Source of the DNA: a virus
Lineage: Duplodnaviria > Caudoviricetes
DNA: 64,000 nt
IMG/VR virus record: IMGVR_UViG_3300011868_000001
Coordinates: 32,001-96,000 of that record
Reading direction: 5' to 3' (one strand)
Positions within the stretch are counted from its first letter, which is position 1, and each line of letters begins with the position of its first letter. A program made the position numbers and the translations under genes. The notes under the pieces were generated by a model. That model did no database searches, was not told where the DNA came from, and was given only the letters and a program-made list of their open reading frames with translations. This document shows, piece by piece, positions 6,019 through 19,378 of this stretch.

Positions 6019-6465
6019 TTACCGACCGCACCAGGAGACCTTAGTCCCACCGGTGTAATGGTCAGCCAGCCCGCTTTCAATTAGCCGGGTGGCCACATCG
6101 GTACCATCTACCGATACGCGCGCCAACAACCTGAAGTACTTGTCCCGACCTAGGTCAGACAGGACAATGACGCGTCCTTTACTGACCAGATCATCCACTA
6201 ATTGCCGGGCCTGCTGAGCTTTTAACTTCTCAGCAGTTTTCAAGGCAGCTGTGGAACAGGTGCTGATTAGCTCTGGGGTGTTGACATCTCTGATCCGTAC
6301 CCCGAGTGCTGCACCAAAGACGGGCAACTGACCCGGTAGATTGACGGTGATGGTGTCACCATCATAAACCCTGACCACATTCATGGACGTGAGTTCGATG
6401 GTCTCGGCATTTGTATTTGGGATATAAATGCAAAGACCCAAGATGATCAGTAAGATACGGATCAT
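6019..6465 (-). CDS. thermonuclease (SNase-like) with N-terminal signal/anchor
   Basis: VVRVYDGDTI, VRIRDVNTPE, DKYFRLLARV and LIESGLA motifs; hydrophobic N-terminus. Confidence 0.9.
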   Translation of the reverse strand: MIRILLIILGLCIYIPNTNAETIELTSMNVVRVYDGDTITVNLPGQLPVFGAALGVRIRDVNTPELISTCSTAALKTAEKLKAQQARQLVDDLVSKGRVIVLSDLGRDKYFRLLARVSVDGTDVATRLIESGLADHYTGGTKVSWCGR

Positions 6466-10383: not shown

Positions 10384-10992
10384 TTATTCTACCAATTCCA
10401 ATACCGGACGCCAGCCGTTATTCTCATGTGACGCACTTTTCACAAGAAGGTTATATATCGTGGAAATTCCGGTTTCACCTCGATGAACACCTACAGTGGA
10501 GGTTTGGCCAGCCTCAGCCGTGATGGACGCTCTACCGCTGCCGGATACCGCCCCCACACCTAATTGCTGTTCGCTGAAACGCGCCCAGACGCCTTTCCTC
10601 ACATCAGACACCCGGTAGAGCAGGTTAGTCCATTCTGAACCAGTTATGAGTCGACAAATGAAATTCCGCCCTTGGACGTTGACCACTTTACCGGCCATTA
10701 ATCCTCTTGCATTTAGGTGGTTCCACGATACGTTATAACGCCTGGGTGTCTGGGCGATCAGGAGTTTCTTATTTTGATGCGAAAACCCTAACCAATTGCC
10801 GGTGTTGTTCTTCACACTTCCGGCGGTGAGTCCAACCAAACTGGCCAATTCACTGCCAGTAATGACCTCACCGGAGGTATATGTCCCGTAGTAACCTGTT
10901 ACTGCGTCACCGCTCAATAGATCTCGTCCAAGAAGTCCAACGGAAGGCCCTTTCATGCGCTGTCGGGCCGCCCCTAATAAAAGAATATTCAT
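10384..10992 (-). CDS. virion tail-associated protein, WRPVLEL paralog family (short form)
   Basis: GYYG, SEWTNLLYRV, GWRPVLEL; N-terminus resembles that of 8316..9284. Confidence 0.8.
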   Translation of the reverse strand: MNILLLGAARQRMKGPSVGLLGRDLLSGDAVTGYYGTYTSGEVITGSELASLVGLTAGSVKNNTGNWLGFSHQNKKLLIAQTPRRYNVSWNHLNARGLMAGKVVNVQGRNFICRLITGSEWTNLLYRVSDVRKGVWARFSEQQLGVGAVSGSGRASITAEAGQTSTVGVHRGETGISTIYNLLVKSASHENNGWRPVLELVE

Positions 10993-11046: not shown

Positions 11047-11079
11047 GCATACAGGGCGGGATTACCCCGCCCTGTATGC
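11047..11079. terminator. stem-loop closing the desaturase cassette (CATA-hairpin-TATG family)
   Basis: GCATACAGGGCGGG-ATTAC-CCCGCCCTGTATGC. Confidence 0.7.
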
Positions 11080-11082
11080 TAG

Positions 11083-12006
11083 TTAGGCAAATGCCTGCAG
11101 GATAGTGTCGATGACTTTATCCTTATCCGCGATGGCCTGGTTGAGAGCAATGCGCACCCGATGCCGACCATTCATGGACACCGCTTGGACCCGCCCCATC
11201 TGATTTTTCTTCAACATCTGAAAGATCTCAGGGGTCTCGTAGTTCACCATGCCCATTGGCGATGAACCTACAAAACAATTACCTGTGGTCTCACTTTGAC
11301 CATGTGCAATCATCAACCGGGTAAGGTTTTCATGACTGCAGTCCAGAGAAAAACGACCGTTCTTAAGCGATCCGGAACCATACAGGGAGTAGTGCCCATA
11401 ACAGTGCTCAAACCCTTCCAGAATCTTGCTGGTGATCACGTTCGGGTTTCCCAAGGCCTCACATGCAGCCTGAGCCAGGAAGTCCTGTACGCGCATGCCA
11501 GCCGCTTTAGCACGCTTTAAGTAATTGTCACTGATAAAGACAGTGTGGGTCTCAGCCTCACCCTCGATGCCTTCAAAGGTGAATTCCCGTGGGTTGAACA
11601 AGTTGTTCGGTACAATCTTAGGCACAGTCGAAGGCGTCTCATAAACACCGAGTTCGCCGCCGGCCGCTACCCTGAAGATTTCCTGAGTCAGACGGCTGTA
11701 ACTCCAGCCATCAAGGAACTCATGCGTAAAGGACATCCAGTAGCCGTCGTCACACTCGATCACCTTAAAGCAGCTAGGGTGATCAAGGTGATCCCGTGGA
11801 TGACCGGTCAGCAGTACCAACCGCTCTGCCAGCTCTACCTTGCCATCCTTCCAGTCAGCACGCATGAACGGGATCTGCTGAGCGATCTCATTTGCGGCCT
11901 CCATCAGGACATGTGACGGACAATCGAACTGCGGGATAAACAATGCCCCGTAGGTCATCTGCTTACCATGGCCTGAGAAGGCCCGTTGCATCGGGTTCAG
12001 TCTCAT
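11083..12006 (-). CDS. stand-alone condensation-domain-like / CoA-dependent acyltransferase
   Basis: Likely start MRLNPMQ (C1-like LxPxQ) overlaps the upstream stop as ATGA; active-site-like THEFLDGWS (HxxxDG). Confidence 0.7.
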   Translation of the reverse strand: MRLNPMQRAFSGHGKQMTYGALFIPQFDCPSHVLMEAANEIAQQIPFMRADWKDGKVELAERLVLLTGHPRDHLDHPSCFKVIECDDGYWMSFTHEFLDGWSYSRLTQEIFRVAAGGELGVYETPSTVPKIVPNNLFNPREFTFEGIEGEAETHTVFISDNYLKRAKAAGMRVQDFLAQAACEALGNPNVITSKILEGFEHCYGHYSLYGSGSLKNGRFSLDCSHENLTRLMIAHGQSETTGNCFVGSSPMGMVNYETPEIFQMLKKNQMGRVQAVSMNGRHRVRIALNQAIADKDKVIDTILQAFA

Positions 12007-12746
12007 TTCTTGATCATCCTCACAAACCAGGAGGTGGGGTCGACTTCCCACTTCTTGATGGCAAAGTTCCACCGGTTAGGGAACTTGTGGTGGTTGTTAT
12101 GCAATCCCTCGCCACCGAATAGCCAGCCCAGTATCTTGGAGTTCTTCGAACCCTCACCGGTCTCATAGGACACGTAACCGAACTCGTGAATCCACTTGAT
12201 GGTCACGTACTTACGGGCAAACTGCATCGCCACCACTGGCAGGGCCCACAGGTAAATCAGCGCTTCCAATGAGATCAACGACAGCAGGACAATGGCTGCG
12301 AACGAATACGCAAAGTAGTACCGGTAGGTACGCATCATGATCGGATCGGAAATGAACCGCCGTTTCATGCCTGGAGTCATCTTGACGTTGATGTTCTTAA
12401 ATGATACCATGCCGCTTTGGGCGTAGTAGTGGTGCGGATCGTCAGGCTGGTCAGACTTTAAGTGATGCTCCAGATGGATGATCGCGTAGAAGCCTGGGTG
12501 ACCAGATAGGCTGGTACAAGTCGCCCAGATCATAAACTCACGCCAAAATGGCGTGGTCTCAAATGAGCGATGAGTGAAGTAGCGATGGTTCCCGGCTGAG
12601 AGTCCTGCAATCCAGTATACCTGGAACATACAGAACGAGCCTAAGAGCCACCATCCGTTCGGCATAAAAAGCGCCCCGACAGAGATGACCATCGCAAGGA
12701 TGGTCATCGCCGCAGCCTGTCGGTGATCAGACTGGAGCAGGCGCAT
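12003..12746 (-). CDS. membrane fatty-acid desaturase (delta-9-like)
   Basis: His boxes HRYFTH, HLEHH and GEGLHNNHH; WEVDP; transmembrane segments. Confidence 0.92.
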   Translation of the reverse strand: MRLLQSDHRQAAAMTILAMVISVGALFMPNGWWLLGSFCMFQVYWIAGLSAGNHRYFTHRSFETTPFWREFMIWATCTSLSGHPGFYAIIHLEHHLKSDQPDDPHHYYAQSGMVSFKNINVKMTPGMKRRFISDPIMMRTYRYYFAYSFAAIVLLSLISLEALIYLWALPVVAMQFARKYVTIKWIHEFGYVSYETGEGSKNSKILGWLFGGEGLHNNHHKFPNRWNFAIKKWEVDPTSWFVRMIKK

Positions 12747-13543
12747 TACGCAGCCCCAGCCTTCTTGCTACGAATCAGGCAGATGAACCAGTAACCCGGA
12801 TCGAACTCCCACCACTTCTCGCCCAGCTTAGCGCGCTTGGGACGTTTGTGATGGTTGTTGTGCCAGCCTTCGCCGCCTGCAATCAGAGAAGCGAACCACC
12901 AGTTGTTACTGAGGTCGCCATTGTCGTAGGTCTGATAACCCAGTCCCTTGACGTGCCCGGTCCAGAGGACGAAGCGAAGGGTCAGCTGGGACAAACCTGC
13001 CGGCACCATCCACAGCCAGAAGATAGCCTCGAACGCGTTCAAACCCGCCAACAGACCCAGTGCAGTCATACCCACGACGTAGGACGCCACGTAGAGCCAG
13101 TAATACTTGATCGTCAGTTGATGCAACGGATCACGTGCCACCATGGTCAGCAGGAACCGCTTGCTCACCGTGGTCTTGTGGTCGAACGGTGATTCACCGG
13201 TCAGCTGCAACTTACGATAAGGGTCTTCTGGCGTATCCGCCTTGCGGTGATGGGTCATGTGAGTGTCAGCCCAGATGCAGGGCGGGCCGACCAGCGAGAC
13301 CATAGCGCAGTACGACATCACCCATTGCCAGAACCGATTGGTTTCAAAGGCATTGTGCGAATAGTACCGGTGGACGCCGACGCTGATACCCACGACGTTC
13401 AGGACTTGCCACAGCACGAGCGCTGCGATGACCAGAACTGGATTGAACTGAAAGAACGCAACGATCGGCGCAACTGCCGCTGACGTCATGATGATCCGGT
13501 TCCCCCAGACCATGTTAGTGTTGGTTGGTTTGAACATGTTCAT
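12746..13543 (-). CDS. membrane fatty-acid desaturase (delta-9-like), second paralog
   Basis: His boxes HRYYSH, HMTHH and GEGWHNNHH; WWEFDP; RBS GAGGAG before the ATG at 13543. Confidence 0.92.
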   Translation of the reverse strand: MNMFKPTNTNMVWGNRIIMTSAAVAPIVAFFQFNPVLVIAALVLWQVLNVVGISVGVHRYYSHNAFETNRFWQWVMSYCAMVSLVGPPCIWADTHMTHHRKADTPEDPYRKLQLTGESPFDHKTTVSKRFLLTMVARDPLHQLTIKYYWLYVASYVVGMTALGLLAGLNAFEAIFWLWMVPAGLSQLTLRFVLWTGHVKGLGYQTYDNGDLSNNWWFASLIAGGEGWHNNHHKRPKRAKLGEKWWEFDPGYWFICLIRSKKAGAA

Positions 13544-13551
13544 GTAGCTCC

Positions 13552-14181
13552 TCACCCCTGTAGAATTTGTACGCTGGCCATGGCCTCAGGTGACACTTCA
13601 GGATAGAGGGACTTGACCTCCTCCTTCGTCACTTCATACATATACACCAAGAAGGCATTTTCTTCACTGTTGTTAATGAAGGTGTAGGGGATGGGTTTGG
13701 TTAGCTTCAGATGTTTGAAGCTGTTGTGACGCGATGGGCCTATGTCAACACTACCTTCGACTATGAAGACATTGCGCTCATTGCCAGTGGTTTCAATCGT
13801 CACGGATTCCCCAGGAGCCAATGGGAAGTTTTGGGCGGCGTACAAACGCTTACCGGGTTCATTGGCCATGATACAGACAAACTTCGAGTTGTCTTCTTCA
13901 CCCTGTATTCTATATTCACCACGCACTGTTAAGCGTGCGTTAAGTGTGGTGTCACCGCGATAACGGACGAATTCAGGTAAGGTGGCCGACTTAAATCTTA
14001 CCGCCCCAGAAACAATGGCATTGGCCCTATGAACGTTGATTCCAATCTCTTGTCCATTGAACGCGAGTTGAGGAGGCAGGTCAACAGCAACAACCGCGTA
14101 TTGATCCTTATTGAGCGACAATTCATAAATGGTGAATTCGCTAAGTGGTCTGACGACCCATGCAAACGGCTTGAATTCCAT
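13552..14181 (-). CDS. bicupin/pirin-C-like beta-barrel protein
   Basis: Two cupin-like stretches (AIVSGAVRF; LAPGESVTI...VFIVEGSVDIG); no obvious metal-binding His motif. Confidence 0.5.
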   Translation of the reverse strand: MEFKPFAWVVRPLSEFTIYELSLNKDQYAVVAVDLPPQLAFNGQEIGINVHRANAIVSGAVRFKSATLPEFVRYRGDTTLNARLTVRGEYRIQGEEDNSKFVCIMANEPGKRLYAAQNFPLAPGESVTIETTGNERNVFIVEGSVDIGPSRHNSFKHLKLTKPIPYTFINNSEENAFLVYMYEVTKEEVKSLYPEVSPEAMASVQILQG

Positions 14182-14183
14182 AC

Positions 14184-14417
14184 TTAGATCTCCTCGCTTT
14201 CCGCGTTGCGGTCAAAGCGCGTATCAGGGACCGGGTCCATGATCGGTTGGGGAATTGGGTTACCGCAGTTTTCTAGCAACGAATAAGCCATGCCCAAAAC
14301 AAAAGCTTGTTTCACGCTCAGACCACCTAAATCTAACGGTCTGAATTCCATAGTAACGGGCATGTTACCGTTCTCTACGACTGCGGAGCTTGACCCTATT
14401 GAAATGATTTTAATCAT
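14184..14417 (-). CDS. small hypothetical protein
   Basis: 77 aa, tightly packed between the tip-protein and bicupin genes. Confidence 0.7.
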   Translation of the reverse strand: MIKIISIGSSSAVVENGNMPVTMEFRPLDLGGLSVKQAFVLGMAYSLLENCGNPIPQPIMDPVPDTRFDRNAESEEI

Positions 14418-14431
14418 ACCGATTACTCATG

Positions 14432-15019
14432 TCAGTTGAAGACGACAGTAGTGGTCTTATTGATAATGGCGTTATATATCTGATTGTATTGTTGAACAGT
14501 GATACTGATACCATAGATCTTGAACGCCGCCGTCGATGAGGTATAAAACGTAGAAGTGCCTGTCGGTGTGGAGGCTGATCCTTTGTAGGAAAGCGACATA
14601 TCTACACTGAATATACCTGCTATAGTCAGACCACCTATGGTCACACTGCGTGGGGTCATATGTGACCCGGATGCAGATGACGTGTCTATCATCAACATGA
14701 GGTGACAGATAGGACTGGTACCACCAGTGTTTTCAATGTAACATTGTCTTATCGGTATTCCGAATACAGACGTAGGGGAAATTGAACCGAACGCACCTCT
14801 CGAAAATCCACACATCGTACCGCTTGCCACGGCAGATAGGTTAAACGACCCTAGACCGATGGCAGCAGACTTGCCCCGCAGAGCAGACATTGCGATAGCG
14901 CCTGAAGCCAGGCCTGCCAGAGAACGGACGTTGCTCTGACCAAGACTGATAGCGCCTGAAAGACCTAGTTCTGACCGGATATCGGCCATCGAGATAGGAC
15001 CAGTTGAAGGTAGTGGCAT
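14432..15019 (-). CDS. tail-fibre tip/adhesin-like protein
   Basis: N-terminus MPLPSTGPISMADIRSELG...SGAIAMSALRGKS is a type commonly found downstream of chaperone-ended fibres; variable Ser/Thr/Gly-rich C-terminus. Confidence 0.65.
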   Translation of the reverse strand: MPLPSTGPISMADIRSELGLSGAISLGQSNVRSLAGLASGAIAMSALRGKSAAIGLGSFNLSAVASGTMCGFSRGAFGSISPTSVFGIPIRQCYIENTGGTSPICHLMLMIDTSSASGSHMTPRSVTIGGLTIAGIFSVDMSLSYKGSASTPTGTSTFYTSSTAAFKIYGISITVQQYNQIYNAIINKTTTVVFN

Positions 15020-15046: not shown

Positions 15047-15077
15047 ATATAGAGGAGGGGCGACCCCTCCTCTATGT
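15047..15077. terminator. stem-loop (hairpin-TATG family)
   Basis: ATAGAGGAGGGG-CGA-CCCCTCCTCTATG. Confidence 0.65.
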
Positions 15078-15086
15078 CGTCAGTCC

Positions 15087-15548
15087 TTAGACGGGTTCAA
15101 CCGGTTCATCACCGCCAACTGGCGGGTCTTCCGGAGCAGATTCATCTACCGGCTCTTCATCTTCGGCAGGCAGTGCCTCTTGTTCTTCCTGCTCGAGCAG
15201 CTCTTGTAGACGACGAGCTTCCTCATCACGCTTGTCAGCGAAGTGCACGTACGCCGAGGTCAGCAGGGCTGCCAGCTGCGCAACACTTGCCGTCTGACCA
15301 GAAGACGTACCGTCCGGGTTGAGCACGGCGTACTCTTCGAACAGGTTGGTGTTGTCAATGGCCATCATCAATTCACCTGCTGGTCGACGGAAGATACTAC
15401 CATCGACTTCGACGATCTGTTCTTCGGCGAAGAGCACGCGTGGAATCTGACCGTAGTCATTATAGATGATGATCGATGCTGCCCGTTTCCAGGTATCGCC
15501 GATTGCTTCTTGCTTGTTGTACTTGAAATCCATCGAAGGGATTGTCAT
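15087..15548 (-). CDS. putative tail-fibre assembly protein with acidic tail
   Basis: Directly downstream of the fibre; E/D/P-rich C-terminus. Confidence 0.5.
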   Translation of the reverse strand: MTIPSMDFKYNKQEAIGDTWKRAASIIIYNDYGQIPRVLFAEEQIVEVDGSIFRRPAGELMMAIDNTNLFEEYAVLNPDGTSSGQTASVAQLAALLTSAYVHFADKRDEEARRLQELLEQEEQEALPAEDEEPVDESAPEDPPVGGDEPVEPV

Positions 15549-15573: not shown

Positions 15574-17820
15574 TTATTTGGCAACCAGTTCTTCAAACAG
15601 AGCCTGGAGTTCATCGATACGCTGAGTCAAGGTATCGACCTGGGCTTCCAGCGACACAATGCGCTCGCCTTGCGCGATCACAATCTCGTCAAGTTCTTTG
15701 ACGCCTTCTGCCAGCAGTGCAGTGACGTTGCCGTAGCAGATACCCATCTTGCCAGAGCCCGGTTCACCGACCACCACTTCCGGGAGGATCTTGTACATCT
15801 CCTGGGCAATGAACCCAGCCTGAACCTGACCGGTGTCCTTACGGGTGAAAGTCACACCCCGCGTGCGACGGATACGGCTCAGTGCATCAGAGATGAGCTT
15901 GATGTCGGTTTTCAGGCTGAGGTCTGAGTAGGCTGTGATGTTACCGCCTGCATAGATATCGAGCACGACACCCAGACCACCCGATACGCGCAGGGCACCG
16001 GTAGTCGCGCTGGTAGCGTTACTGGTGTTGCTGAACGTAGTCACGCCAGTGACAGTGCCACCGGTGGTGTTGAACTTGGCATCCAACGACGTCTGCAGGT
16101 TGGTGATGGTCGAGATCGCCTGTGCACCGGTGTGGTTAGCACGGTTGAGCAGGGTGGCATCAGTGGAGTTCGCTGTCGCACCTGCCGCAATACCATCGAG
16201 TTTGGATTTGTCAGCCGCGACCATCAGACCTGCCAAGGCAGTAGTGGCTGCGGTCAGCGCAGCGTTACCACCTGTGGAACTCGAAACCGTACCGCCAGTG
16301 GAGGTAGCCGACCAGGACAGGTTCGTGGCAACGTTGACTTGCGCCCCTGCTTGAATTCCATCCAACTTGGACTTATCTGCCGAGGTCAGCAGGCCGGCTG
16401 CAGCGGTAGTAGCAGCCGGTAGCGTAGCGTTGTTACCGGTGGAGCTGGTTACAGTACCCGAGCTGGCTGCTGTGGTGTAGCCAAGATTAGTCCCGCCGAT
16501 GTTGCTCAGTCCGTCGAGTTTGGTTTTATCGGCGGCGGTCATGAGACCCGCTGCCGCGGTAGTGGCTGCTGGCAGGGTCGCGTTGTTGCCAGTCGAGCTA
16601 GTCACCGTACCATTGCTGGCAGCACTGGTATAGCCCAGGTTGGTGGCCACGTTGACCTGTGCCCCAGCCTGGATACCGTCGAGTTTGGTCTTGTCGGCAG
16701 AACCCGCCCACCATGCAGCAATCGCCTGACGGACGCGCTGTGCAGTCCAGGCACGACGAGTGGTGGCTGTGCCGGCTTCAGCTTCAGCTTGTGTGACCGT
16801 TACAGCATTCCATTCACGAGCATCGCTAAGACGTGCATCGGTCGAGTCGACCTTAGCGTCTAGTTCAGTCTGCAAGCCGCTGACAGTGGCGATCGCTTGA
16901 GTGCCCGTGTGTGTGGCACGGTCACGCAACTGAGCATCGGTCGAGTTGGCGGTGGCGCCAGCAGCAATGCCATCGAGTTTGGTTTTCTCAGCACTGGCGA
17001 TCCACCAGGCAACGATAGCTTGACGAACACGCTGAGCAGTAAAGGCACGCCGAGTCGTGGCCGTACCGGCTTCTGCTTCAGCCTGCGTGATGGTGCTGGC
17101 AGTCCACTCGCGGCTGTTGGTCAGACGGGCATCATCATCATTGACTTTGGTGCCCAGCTGAGTTGCAACAGTGGTGGCGAAGTTTGGATCATTACCCAGC
17201 GCCGCGGCCAGCTCGTTGAGGGTGTTCAATGCCTCTGGAGAGGAGTCAACCAGCGCCGCAATCGCAGCATTACAGAAGGCCTTGTATTCGCTCTCGATGG
17301 TTGCCAGTTGTTTACCGTCAAGGGTATCGGCATCCAGACCCGATCCTGCGCCGTCAACCGTGAGCAACTTAGCCAGTACATCAGCTGCCGTGTAGAGCGC
17401 AGCATTGAGTTTGCTGTTAAGGGCGGTATCCAGACCGGTGACCTTGCTGGTAGGTAGGGCCGGAATCCGATCGACATGGAAGGCACCGGTGGTGACTTTG
17501 GCAGCATCTAGCACCGGAATGTCCGCTGCAAGCAGCAGTTCACCTTTGGTGACGCGGCCTTTAGCGTCGACCGTCACTTTAGGGTAGACACCAGGGGCCA
17601 CTGCCGTGTTGGCCAGTGTCAGGGCAATCGAGACATTGGCATCGCCCGATACCGATTGGGTGCCGGTGGCATCGCCGGTGACGATCAGGTTAAAGGGATT
17701 GGTCAGTTTATAGGCGCTGACCGCTGGGGCTGTCTTGTCGAGCTTACTGTCGATCTGATCCGAGATCGACGACAGCAGCCCTGAAAGCTTAAGCTTGAGT
17801 GCTTGAATTTGAGGCGACAT
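15574..17820 (-). CDS. long tail fibre with C-terminal intramolecular chaperone (peptidase S74-like)
   Basis: KVTVDAKGRVT, SPEALNTLNELAAALGNDPNFATT, repeated KTKLDGI units, autocleavage YSDLSLKTDI, GFIAQE, terminal coiled coil. Confidence 0.92.
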   Translation of the reverse strand: MSPQIQALKLKLSGLLSSISDQIDSKLDKTAPAVSAYKLTNPFNLIVTGDATGTQSVSGDANVSIALTLANTAVAPGVYPKVTVDAKGRVTKGELLLAADIPVLDAAKVTTGAFHVDRIPALPTSKVTGLDTALNSKLNAALYTAADVLAKLLTVDGAGSGLDADTLDGKQLATIESEYKAFCNAAIAALVDSSPEALNTLNELAAALGNDPNFATTVATQLGTKVNDDDARLTNSREWTASTITQAEAEAGTATTRRAFTAQRVRQAIVAWWIASAEKTKLDGIAAGATANSTDAQLRDRATHTGTQAIATVSGLQTELDAKVDSTDARLSDAREWNAVTVTQAEAEAGTATTRRAWTAQRVRQAIAAWWAGSADKTKLDGIQAGAQVNVATNLGYTSAASNGTVTSSTGNNATLPAATTAAAGLMTAADKTKLDGLSNIGGTNLGYTTAASSGTVTSSTGNNATLPAATTAAAGLLTSADKSKLDGIQAGAQVNVATNLSWSATSTGGTVSSSTGGNAALTAATTALAGLMVAADKSKLDGIAAGATANSTDATLLNRANHTGAQAISTITNLQTSLDAKFNTTGGTVTGVTTFSNTSNATSATTGALRVSGGLGVVLDIYAGGNITAYSDLSLKTDIKLISDALSRIRRTRGVTFTRKDTGQVQAGFIAQEMYKILPEVVVGEPGSGKMGICYGNVTALLAEGVKELDEIVIAQGERIVSLEAQVDTLTQRIDELQALFEELVAK

Positions 17821-17860: not shown

Positions 17861-19378
17861 TCATGTGCGGAACATTGCTTGCAACACTCGCAGGTTCCTG
17901 GGCAACGACGGCGTGAATTCGACAGCAGCCTGGTTGGGCACTGTCTTAAGATCAGCGAACAGCTGTCGCATCAATTTTACGGGTGTCGCGGTGGGTGCGT
18001 AGCTCTGCAAGGTCTTCAGTGACACCGGCAGTCGCTCAACATCCAGATCAGGCTGGAAACGCTTGACTCTGAGCAAGGCAGTCATGTTCAACGGGGCGGT
18101 CAAGATGATCTTGAACTCATCTCCATTTTTCACCTGGAAGGTTCCAGTGATACCGTTATCCCAAGTCAGACGTGAGCCGACCGATGGCGCGAAGGAAATC
18201 GTTCCAACCCGGACATCTTTGAAATACACAATGCCTGATACCGTTTCCTGCGGGGTGCCGTTGATTACTGCTGAGATGGCAACTACGTTACTCAATCCTG
18301 CGTTGATCTCCTCACCACTGACGACTCCATTCCCCGTACTGATAAACAACACTTGGAAATCCAGCACGTAGTAGTACACCCGAAGAATCTCAACGCTACC
18401 GTCTTTGAGGTTAGCAGCTACTTGAATGGTAGTGCGTCCCTTACCGATTTGGAACGACGGCACGTTGCCCGGCAGATAAGACGGGGTCTGAGCCACGAAC
18501 ACACGGCTCTCGGAGCCGCCTGCATGGATCGATTCAGCGTTGGTCATCCCGGCATAAAGCGGATGATCGCCATAGGTACTGCGCAGGAAGCCAACGTTGA
18601 CTGGGACCCGATTATAGTCCCCTGAGAACCAGCAACCGAATCGTGTCACCACCCGGTTGGCCATGTTGAAAAACCCAGCCCGTGAGGCAATGGCTTCTTC
18701 GATGGTGTTGAGAACAGGGCCGTGGTCGGTCACAACAAACAGTCCGTTGCCTTGTTCACGATAGAGGACCATGGCATCAACCGCTTGCTCGGTGATCCGG
18801 TCAGAACCAGCAGCACTGGTACTGGACATCAGAATGACGCAGGCGTACTGATTCAGTTCGCTCAAAGTCGGATTGAGTCGAGTATTGGGGTAATCGGCTG
18901 CATCTTTGATCGTGAGTTCAAAACCTGCAATCTGGGCCAGTCGAGTAAAGCTCACCGCAAAACCACTGCTGTTGACAGCGTCTTTGACCATGTAACTGCC
19001 AGTGGTCTGATCACCCAAGAGCAGGACCTTACGATTGCCGATGGCTAGCTTTTCAGGATTGGCAATGAAGTTCAGGGTGTTGTAAAGGAACTTGAAGCTT
19101 GCAGGAAGCTGAGCAAACGGTGTCCCTGCGGCTGGCGCCATGCTGTTATAGAACTTTGGAAAACCACCGTCATAGACGACATTGCCCAGACCATCTTGAG
19201 TGACAGCAATAAACGGAACCGGCGGTGAACTGGTGTCGTACGCCACGTACTTGGAAATCGATGGCGCACCCGCATTGACGGTGTACTGTACACTCTCCAC
19301 CTCGCCAGACAGTACGAGGTTGACGGTGGTGGGGTTATCGTAAAACCCCGGCTGCTTATCGAACGATACGTTGGACAT
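17861..19378 (-). CDS. putative virion/tail structural protein
   Basis: 505 aa, within the tail operon. Confidence 0.55.
   Translation of the reverse strand: MSNVSFDKQPGFYDNPTTVNLVLSGEVESVQYTVNAGAPSISKYVAYDTSSPPVPFIAVTQDGLGNVVYDGGFPKFYNSMAPAAGTPFAQLPASFKFLYNTLNFIANPEKLAIGNRKVLLLGDQTTGSYMVKDAVNSSGFAVSFTRLAQIAGFELTIKDAADYPNTRLNPTLSELNQYACVILMSSTSAAGSDRITEQAVDAMVLYREQGNGLFVVTDHGPVLNTIEEAIASRAGFFNMANRVVTRFGCWFSGDYNRVPVNVGFLRSTYGDHPLYAGMTNAESIHAGGSESRVFVAQTPSYLPGNVPSFQIGKGRTTIQVAANLKDGSVEILRVYYYVLDFQVLFISTGNGVVSGEEINAGLSNVVAISAVINGTPQETVSGIVYFKDVRVGTISFAPSVGSRLTWDNGITGTFQVKNGDEFKIILTAPLNMTALLRVKRFQPDLDVERLPVSLKTLQSYAPTATPVKLMRQLFADLKTVPNQAAVEFTPSLPRNLRVLQAMFRT

Follow-up and report, generated by a model that had tools for sequence, protein, structure and literature searches.

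In this study, we analysed a cassette of six genes standing behind the tail fibre gene of a large tailed phage, in which two membrane desaturases, a cupin and a small acyltransferase follow a putative fibre-tip protein. The window, meaning the whole stretch of 64,000 nucleotides that was analysed, covers bases 32001-96000 of the viral record IMGVR_UViG_3300011868_000001, which is 253,747 bp long and 96% complete. From tip to acyltransferase the cassette encodes the tip protein, a conserved small protein (open reading frame 77, ORF77), a bicupin, the desaturases des1 and des2, and a stand-alone miniature enzyme of the condensation fold (Table 1). A preliminary description, made from the letters and their open reading frames, had placed six reading frames here with gaps of 14 nt or less and TAATG and ATGA overlaps, amid structural tail genes. 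All six were found there on the minus strand, the gaps measure 14, 2, 8, -1 (TAATG) and -4 (ATGA) nt, and the neighbours are tail or virion genes. Its naming of two three-His-box desaturases, a bicupin and an HxxxDG condensation-like enzyme held as well, the desaturases by their PF00487 matches and conserved boxes and the other two by models and structural matches. The cassette genes are translationally coupled and lie on the tail-gene strand, and all six are under purifying selection in comparison with the close relatives L001-L003 (dN below dS), dN/dS being about 0.02-0.08 for the enzymes and up to about 0.3 for the tip and ORF77. The module is headed by an S74 tail fibre that lies outside the interval of the preliminary description.

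Table 1. Features of the fibre module and cassette, in window positions (E, expectation value; aa, amino acids).
Feature	Position	Strand	Evidence
Long tail fibre, 748 aa, C-terminal peptidase S74 chaperone	15574..17820	-	PF13884 E 5e-13 and many PHROG tail-fibre families
Protein of 153 aa with acidic tail, encoded between fibre and tip	15087..15548	-	same place in L001-L003
Perfect 12-bp hairpin upstream of tip gene, without U-tail	15049..15075	.	z -4.1
Tip protein, 195 aa, putative adhesin	14432..15019	-	phrog_26817, residues 1-52
ORF77, conserved small protein, 77 aa	14184..14417	-	family alignment of 10
Bicupin, 209 aa	13552..14181	-	model and structural matches
des1, SCD1/Delta9-like membrane desaturase, 265 aa from ATG	12746..13543	-	PF00487 E 2e-19
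des2, membrane desaturase, 247 aa	12003..12746	-	PF00487 E 2e-14
Acyltransferase, stand-alone miniature condensation fold, 307 aa	11083..12006	-	fold and HxxxDG
Perfect 14-bp hairpin closing the cassette, without U-tail	11047..11079	.	z -5.5

Both desaturases score above the PF00487 cut-off of 29.7 bits (70.9 bits for des1 and 54.2 for des2), and their profile matches mouse SCD1 over its full length (E 3e-23). The three His boxes and the ninth His, that is, all nine iron histidines, are invariant in both, with H197 of des1 invariant. Each protein has two long hydrophobic stretches, and des1 carries no cytochrome b5 fusion. The two share about 32% identity and are sister paralogues; in the tree (FastTree, midpoint-rooted, with weak deep nodes, from which no donor is claimed) they form two sister clades with a support of 0.98 that contain cassette members only, and the third desaturase that some cassettes carry arose separately. 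A pattern scan of GTDB genomes yielded bacterial relatives of at most 32% identity, and a metagenome scan was filled by generic desaturases. In SCD1, Tyr104 caps the acyl tunnel (PMC7317563). This site is Gln in 24 of 24 des1 and des2 sequences and mostly Trp, Phe, Tyr or Ile in bacterial desaturases and the other viral ones; at the Ala108 site des1 and des2 mostly have Val or Ile, and the Trp four residues ahead of box 2 is missing from des2. These tunnel-site residues suggest that des1 and des2 may act on a substrate other than plain C16 or C18 chains and may perform two different steps. A specialised product fits better than an effect on bulk fluidity, because the paralogues are old, separately conserved and carry Gln at the tunnel cap.

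The last gene of the cassette has no Pfam, PHROG or NCBIfam match. On its predicted model (pLDDT 69, with residues 191-240 poor), the protein has the condensation or CoA-dependent acyltransferase fold, with Atlas TM scores of 0.76-0.80 to condensation (C) domain and PapA-like models, a Foldseek E of 1e-10 to SrfA-C, and a VIA Z of 17.0 (rmsd 4.8, 281 residues aligned). In the motif THEFLDG, H95, D99 and G100 are invariant across 11 sequences diverging down to 24% identity, and H95 aligns with the catalytic second His of the HHxxxDG motif of nonribosomal peptide synthetases (NRPS). Its length is counted from the ATG at which its relatives also begin; the protein is about 100 residues shorter than its structural matches and soluble, with neither a transmembrane segment nor a signal. 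An exhaustive profile search of 1.8 billion representatives returned only 9 true relatives, and the family amounts to about 9 clusters at 50% identity, all of those read standing in a phage-like context. It is a new minimal condensation-fold family. VibH, PapA5, WS/DGAT, SgcC5 and NRPS C domains share its two-lobed fold and an HxxxDG with catalytic second His, whereas they have 400-450 residues instead of about 307, only 6-13% identity to it, and it has no carrier protein nearby. A carrier-dependent NRPS condensation domain proper (PF00668) was rejected, with no Pfam match in the protein and no PF00550, PF00501 or PF01648 in the genome.

The bicupin was modelled with a pLDDT of 92, and its Foldseek and VIA matches are bicupins (Z up to 10.9), the nearest viral models being unnamed phage proteins such as one of Prochlorococcus phage P-HM2. 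Residues N49, R52, R75, D77, R83 and C103 form invariant columns, and the protein may bind an anionic ligand. A metal-dependent cupin enzyme of the pirin, OxdC or BacB type was considered and set aside: the bicupin fold is there, and the His/His/Glu/His metal ligands are not conserved, H157 alone being nearly so, with no invariant His or Glu. A weak search returned no longer, fused bicupin, and the 561-aa match P0022, considered as a fusion, is instead a fibronectin/Ig protein. ORF77 has no Pfam or PHROG match and represents a real conserved family that is replaced or absent in the relatives L004 and L022; a role as acyl carrier protein (ACP) was ruled out, no conserved serine motif appearing in the family alignment of 10.

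The tip protein joins a conserved N-terminal domain of attachment type, about 52 residues long, to a hypervariable remainder, and is 44-52% identical to the alleles of close relatives. Its gene follows the fibre gene, and its conserved N-terminal domain with a variable C-terminal part is that of gp38-type adhesins, as in the gp37-gp38 tip of the T-even phage S16, where a small separate adhesin gene also follows the fibre; the tip of the window differs from S16 gp38 in lacking the polyglycine sandwich and three Trp (PMC6851490). The same N-domain heads proteins matching PF05268 (gp38) in L076 and L229, which are true gp38 polyglycine adhesins, and a protein with a weak PF05268 match in L007; the shared domain supports the putative fibre-tip role. 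The tip protein of the window gave no PF05268 (polyglycine sandwich) match in the Pfam search, and the sequence search gave no relative with a solved structure. Prediction of a complex of the tip with ORF77 and the bicupin scored 0.00, which we count neither for nor against binding. The 153-aa protein encoded between fibre and tip is 79-88% identical over 106 aa to the proteins at the same place in L001-L003, returned no family in the Pfam search, and is probably a fibre accessory protein. In L007 (3155-7188) there are tandem adhesin genes, one of a 348-aa polyglycine type and one of a 190-aa short type; behind each stand a small ORF and cupin-like genes, one with a His-rich motif.

The preliminary description had also presented the cassette as one hairpin-bounded unit. 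Both hairpins are real and far from chance: the genome holds 38 perfect hairpins, these two among them, against 0 after shuffling. They recur at matching positions in L001-L003, and in L001, L003, L004 and L022, too, the last cassette gene has a hairpin behind it. Scans for sigma-70 promoters and U-tailed terminators gave matches at chance level. The hairpins mark boundaries, but the single transcription unit is no more than suggested, because neither stem has a U-tail on the coding strand, the two are only 2 of 38 in the genome, and in L007 one hairpin falls inside the cassette. The perfect hairpins of the genome form an intergenic family of 11-20 bp, mostly without U-tails and several with stems that open with CATA and close with TATG; 13 of the 38 sites fall in the window (3949-63492).

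The arrangement recurs well beyond the window. Among the other contigs with the acyltransferase and enough upstream DNA (11 in all: L001-L004, L006/7, L015, L016, L022 and L025-L027), the tip gene stands directly before the enzymes in every one and an S74 fibre precedes the cassette in 10; in the shorter fragments L017, L019 and L021 a desaturase still adjoins the acyltransferase. Variants include an added third desaturase, loss of des1 (L007), and replacement of ORF77 or the bicupin (L004 and L022), and for the 185-aa protein of L022 homology to the bicupin could not be shown. The DNA polymerase of the present phage is 82% identical to that of Pseudomonas phage pPa_SNUABM_DT01 (PMC8541153) and about 40% to those of other phiKZ-like phages. 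By this comparison the phage is phiKZ-like with DT01 as its nearest cultured relative, and its host is probably a Pseudomonas. L022 belongs to the nickie-like Pseudomonas phage group (about 110 kb; DnaB 65% to Pseudomonas phage hairong), so that, judged from these marker genes, the module crosses phage families, with phiKZ-like and unrelated nickie-like carriers. Acyltransferase identity among carriers falls to 26%. In DT01 and L298 the shared upstream virion gene runs on to other genes, with fibre, tip and enzymes jointly absent, and the matching regions of Noxifer, RP12 and Psa21 have no fibre, tip or enzymes. Cultured phages gave no match to des2, the acyltransferase or the bicupin and only 26-27% matches to des1, and weak scans of GTDB genomes with one or two patterns each gave no relative of the acyltransferase or bicupin. 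The cassette enzymes are, by these searches, phage-only in the collections covered.

How tightly the enzymes follow the tip was assessed by comparing relatives. Against L001, nucleotide identity is 41-72% over the variable part of the tip, ORF77 and the bicupin, jumps to 90-99% at about position 13650 and stays so through the enzymes. Among close relatives the tips swap (44-52% identity) while the desaturases remain at 89-98%; between L001 and L003 the pattern is reversed, the tip and ORF77 being nearly identical and the enzymes showing higher dS. Across lineages, the distances of bicupin, des2 and acyltransferase correlate with one another (rho 0.65-0.74), these pairs not being independent and the tip alignments being noisy. 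In the phage Astolliot the tip N-domain stands three in a row without enzymes. Comparison of these sequences indicates that the enzymes are linked to the fibre module rather than to a single tip allele. Because tips swap independently and occur without enzymes, it appears that the enzymes need the fibre-tip neighbourhood and tips do not need the enzymes, and that the substrate is not the variable tip surface. The cassette had been described as wired to the tip gene; the tip does precede the enzymes in all relatives that could be tested and in two phage groups unrelated to each other, but the alleles swap. Co-occurrence in relatives and a CoA-dependent acyltransferase fold in the last gene, two points on which the proposal had been made to depend, were both found.

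Similar but not identical arrangements were also observed. First, four small unrelated phages (L076:5128-7594, L087:5571-7696, L112:5561-7675 and L229:4452-7642) carry a fibre, a gp38 adhesin, a small ORF, a cupin-like protein and one or two desaturases; these desaturases belong to other lineages than des1 and des2, and the cupin-like family matched only moderately (probability 48%). Second, arrays of 7-9 desaturases are present on the viral contigs L070 (2561-12388), L077 (2306-12086) and L079 (574-12510); L070 and L077 also have ACP, phosphopantetheinyl transferase (PPTase), type III polyketide synthase (PKS) or ketosynthase, plus TauD or ATP-grasp genes. The desaturase-array contigs with ACP and PPTase are phage-borne lipid gene clusters. 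Third, the cultured Pelagibacter phage Mosig (L014, 11363-24597) has a desaturase among hydroxylases, an aminotransferase, a methylase and an acetyltransferase, directly before tail-fibre genes, and is a possible experimental model for the wider class.

Viral fatty acid desaturases (vFADs) have been described before. Those of cyanophages are proven C16 Delta9 desaturases (PMC5776448), and two Arctic cryopeg phages of 222-230 kb with predicted Pseudomonas hosts carry five copies each (PMC7300359; PMC10405475), so that the view of phage desaturases as best known from single cyanophage genes has to be widened. Like the cassette, vFADs are SCD1-like three-His-box desaturases of large phages, in phage-only clades and, in the Arctic phages, in several copies per genome. 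The cassette differs in the coupling to an acyltransferase, a bicupin and a fibre-tip gene, in its two fixed paralogues and in the Gln tunnel cap; the accessible parts of the three papers mention no such partner genes. Host recognition clusters of pelagimyophages and cyanomyophages (PMC7029224) and the Mosig island likewise hold tailoring enzymes amid the tail-fibre genes, and a role in host recognition has been proposed for them; the Mosig island shares with the cassette a desaturase. In contrast, those islands span 30-45 kb, are non-syntenic and dominated by glycosyltransferases, whereas the cassette is a compact, ordered 4-kb unit of acyl enzymes that occurs across phage families. In the oad-llp module of T5 (PMC4728585), too, accessory genes travel beside a receptor-binding gene, the accessory product being a lipoprotein there and enzymes here. 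No description of the combination of tip, bicupin, desaturases and acyltransferase was found in the literature, most subscription papers lying outside the search.

We propose that an exchangeable tail-fibre module has the cassette as its enzyme half. At a late stage of infection, des1 and des2 would work one after the other on an acyl chain supplied by the host (as acyl-CoA, acyl-ACP or lipid), with electrons from host partners, and would yield an unusual unsaturated acyl group, probably shorter or polar-ended. The soluble condensation-fold enzyme would pass this group to an amine or hydroxyl in a part of the phage's own fibre-tip complex that the tip alleles have in common; the bicupin might bind or shuttle the acyl intermediate, and the fibre would engage the host envelope more readily with its lipid tag. 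The genome, which is 96% complete, yielded no ACP, PPTase, adenylation enzyme or ligase, or ketosynthase; as these supply genes are missing, acyl donors and electron carriers must come from the host. More than co-transcription, the substrate, the order of the steps or the role of the bicupin, it is the acceptor that we infer here, on the grounds that the genes, coupled and placed behind structural ones, come and go with the fibre and that the arrangement recurs with different desaturases. That such a group is made and attached to the fibre-tip complex is put forward tentatively; the broader proposal, that the enzymes make an acyl group and transfer it, to whatever acceptor, in the service of adsorption, seems reasonably probable. 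That tailed phages of unrelated families lipidate their own fibre tips, with virion acylation as a determinant of host binding, is a doubtful extension, and it is likewise doubtful that this is a categorically new virion acylation system.

Several observations weigh against acylation of the fibre tip. Fibre loci are insertion hot spots, and adjacency alone is therefore weak. Tip distances correlate weakly with those of the enzymes (rho -0.14 to 0.42), and the tip N-domain occurs in 23 cultured phage records without any cassette gene. Since tips vary independently, the acceptor site must be allele-independent, and none was identified. In the small-phage blocks of L076, L087, L112 and L229 no acyltransferase was detected. 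Condensation folds also carry out dehydration and cyclisation, and such enzymes are among the top structural matches. In the Arctic phages, not shown to carry the cassette, fatty acid desaturase transcripts were low and capsid transcripts high (PMC10405475). Finally, the proposed acylation is read from genes and folds, and its product is a predicted one.

The main rival is masking of the host receptor, in which the cassette would acylate an envelope molecule (lipid A, a lipopolysaccharide precursor, a phospholipid or a surface glycan) and so hide the receptor of the fibre, blocking superinfection or stopping progeny from sticking to debris, like T5 Llp. There a receptor-blocking gene stands beside the receptor-binding gene and still works after the binding protein has diverged (PMC4728585), and enzymes of pelagimyophage host-recognition islands have been proposed to alter the host O-chain (PMC7029224). 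Desaturases are membrane enzymes, the strong conservation fits a conserved host substrate, and for both carrier lineages the nearest cultured relatives are Pseudomonas phages. However, the site behind structural genes suggests late expression, which would be ill-timed for exclusion. Known phage O-antigen acyltransferases are integral membrane proteins, unlike the acyltransferase here, which has no transmembrane segment or signal. On balance we consider receptor masking unlikely, though a serious competitor to fibre-tip acylation.

In a small-molecule pathway the product would instead diffuse, being an unsaturated acyl amide or ester or else a polyene- or polyyne-like compound that serves as a signal mimic, an antibacterial or an aid to lysis, and the fibre locus would give only late expression and mobility. 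The presence of two or three different desaturases per cassette recalls the tailoring steps of polyyne clusters in bacteria, the usual substrates of stand-alone C domains are small, and L070, L077 and L079 are other phages with 7-9 desaturases alongside ACP, PPTase, ketosynthase or type III PKS. Against this, the genome has no ACP, ligase, PPTase or thioester-loading gene, and the fixed place behind the tip gene in unrelated phages is left unexplained; we regard the pathway as improbable. The preliminary description had spoken of a mini biosynthetic cluster, and a self-contained one is contradicted by the same missing ACP and PPTase together with the missing adenylation enzyme and ketosynthase. 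A self-contained polyyne or polyene cluster (ligase, ACP and desaturases) was also tried and rejected, its own ACP and acyl-loading enzyme not being found and ORF77 lacking the Ser motif.

Chemistry other than acyl transfer appears more improbable again. The condensation-fold protein could be a dehydratase, isomerase or cyclase, or the desaturase folds could oxidise or hydroxylate a group that is not a lipid, as parts of a general island for oxidative tailoring at the fibre. The dehydratase AzeD and heterocyclisation domains rank among the top VIA matches (Z 15-17), only the second His of HHxxxDG is kept, and the Mosig desaturase stands among oxygenases, aminotransferases and methylases beside tail fibres; yet HxxxDG is the usual signature of active acyl transfer, and the desaturases match the acyl-CoA desaturase SCD1 over its full length with all nine His. 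Least probable are ordinary auxiliary genes, with desaturases that raise host membrane fluidity and neighbours that hitch-hike in a variable island: des1 and des2 are phage-encoded as the vFAD class requires, cyanophage members of which are proven enzymes and multi-copy members proposed fluidity tuners (PMC5776448; PMC7300359), but this leaves unexplained why an acyltransferase and a bicupin travel with the desaturases over very large distances, why two or three deeply diverged paralogues have distinct tunnel residues, and why all are lost jointly with the fibre.

Phage desaturases as auxiliary genes and enzyme-rich fibre islands are known already. The cassette and the related fibre-adhesin-cupin-desaturase blocks of small phages suggest that many phage desaturases now filed as membrane-fluidity genes may be part of the machinery of adsorption. 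A lipid-modified phage fibre or receptor masking by acyl tailoring, the two leading outcomes, would each be new if true and would help explain the abundance of tailoring enzymes in tail-fibre islands. The cassette is also a compact test case of four genes, and it contributes a new family of minimal condensation-fold enzymes as well as desaturases whose tunnel is unusual, all of them suited to expression in laboratory strains.

Upstream, the cassette is flanked by a virion protein gene (17861-19378), the 748-aa S74 fibre and the 153-aa gene; downstream come a virion-protein paralogue and a DUF1353 gene. The paralogue (10384-10989) is inserted between the cassette and the DUF1353 gene, has seven relatives elsewhere in the genome, and is absent from this site in L001-L003. 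In the tail region, positions 6019-6465 encode a 148-aa protein with a signal-like N-terminus and a thermonuclease-like sequence, and in L003 and L007, too, genes of the SNase family are found close to the cassette.

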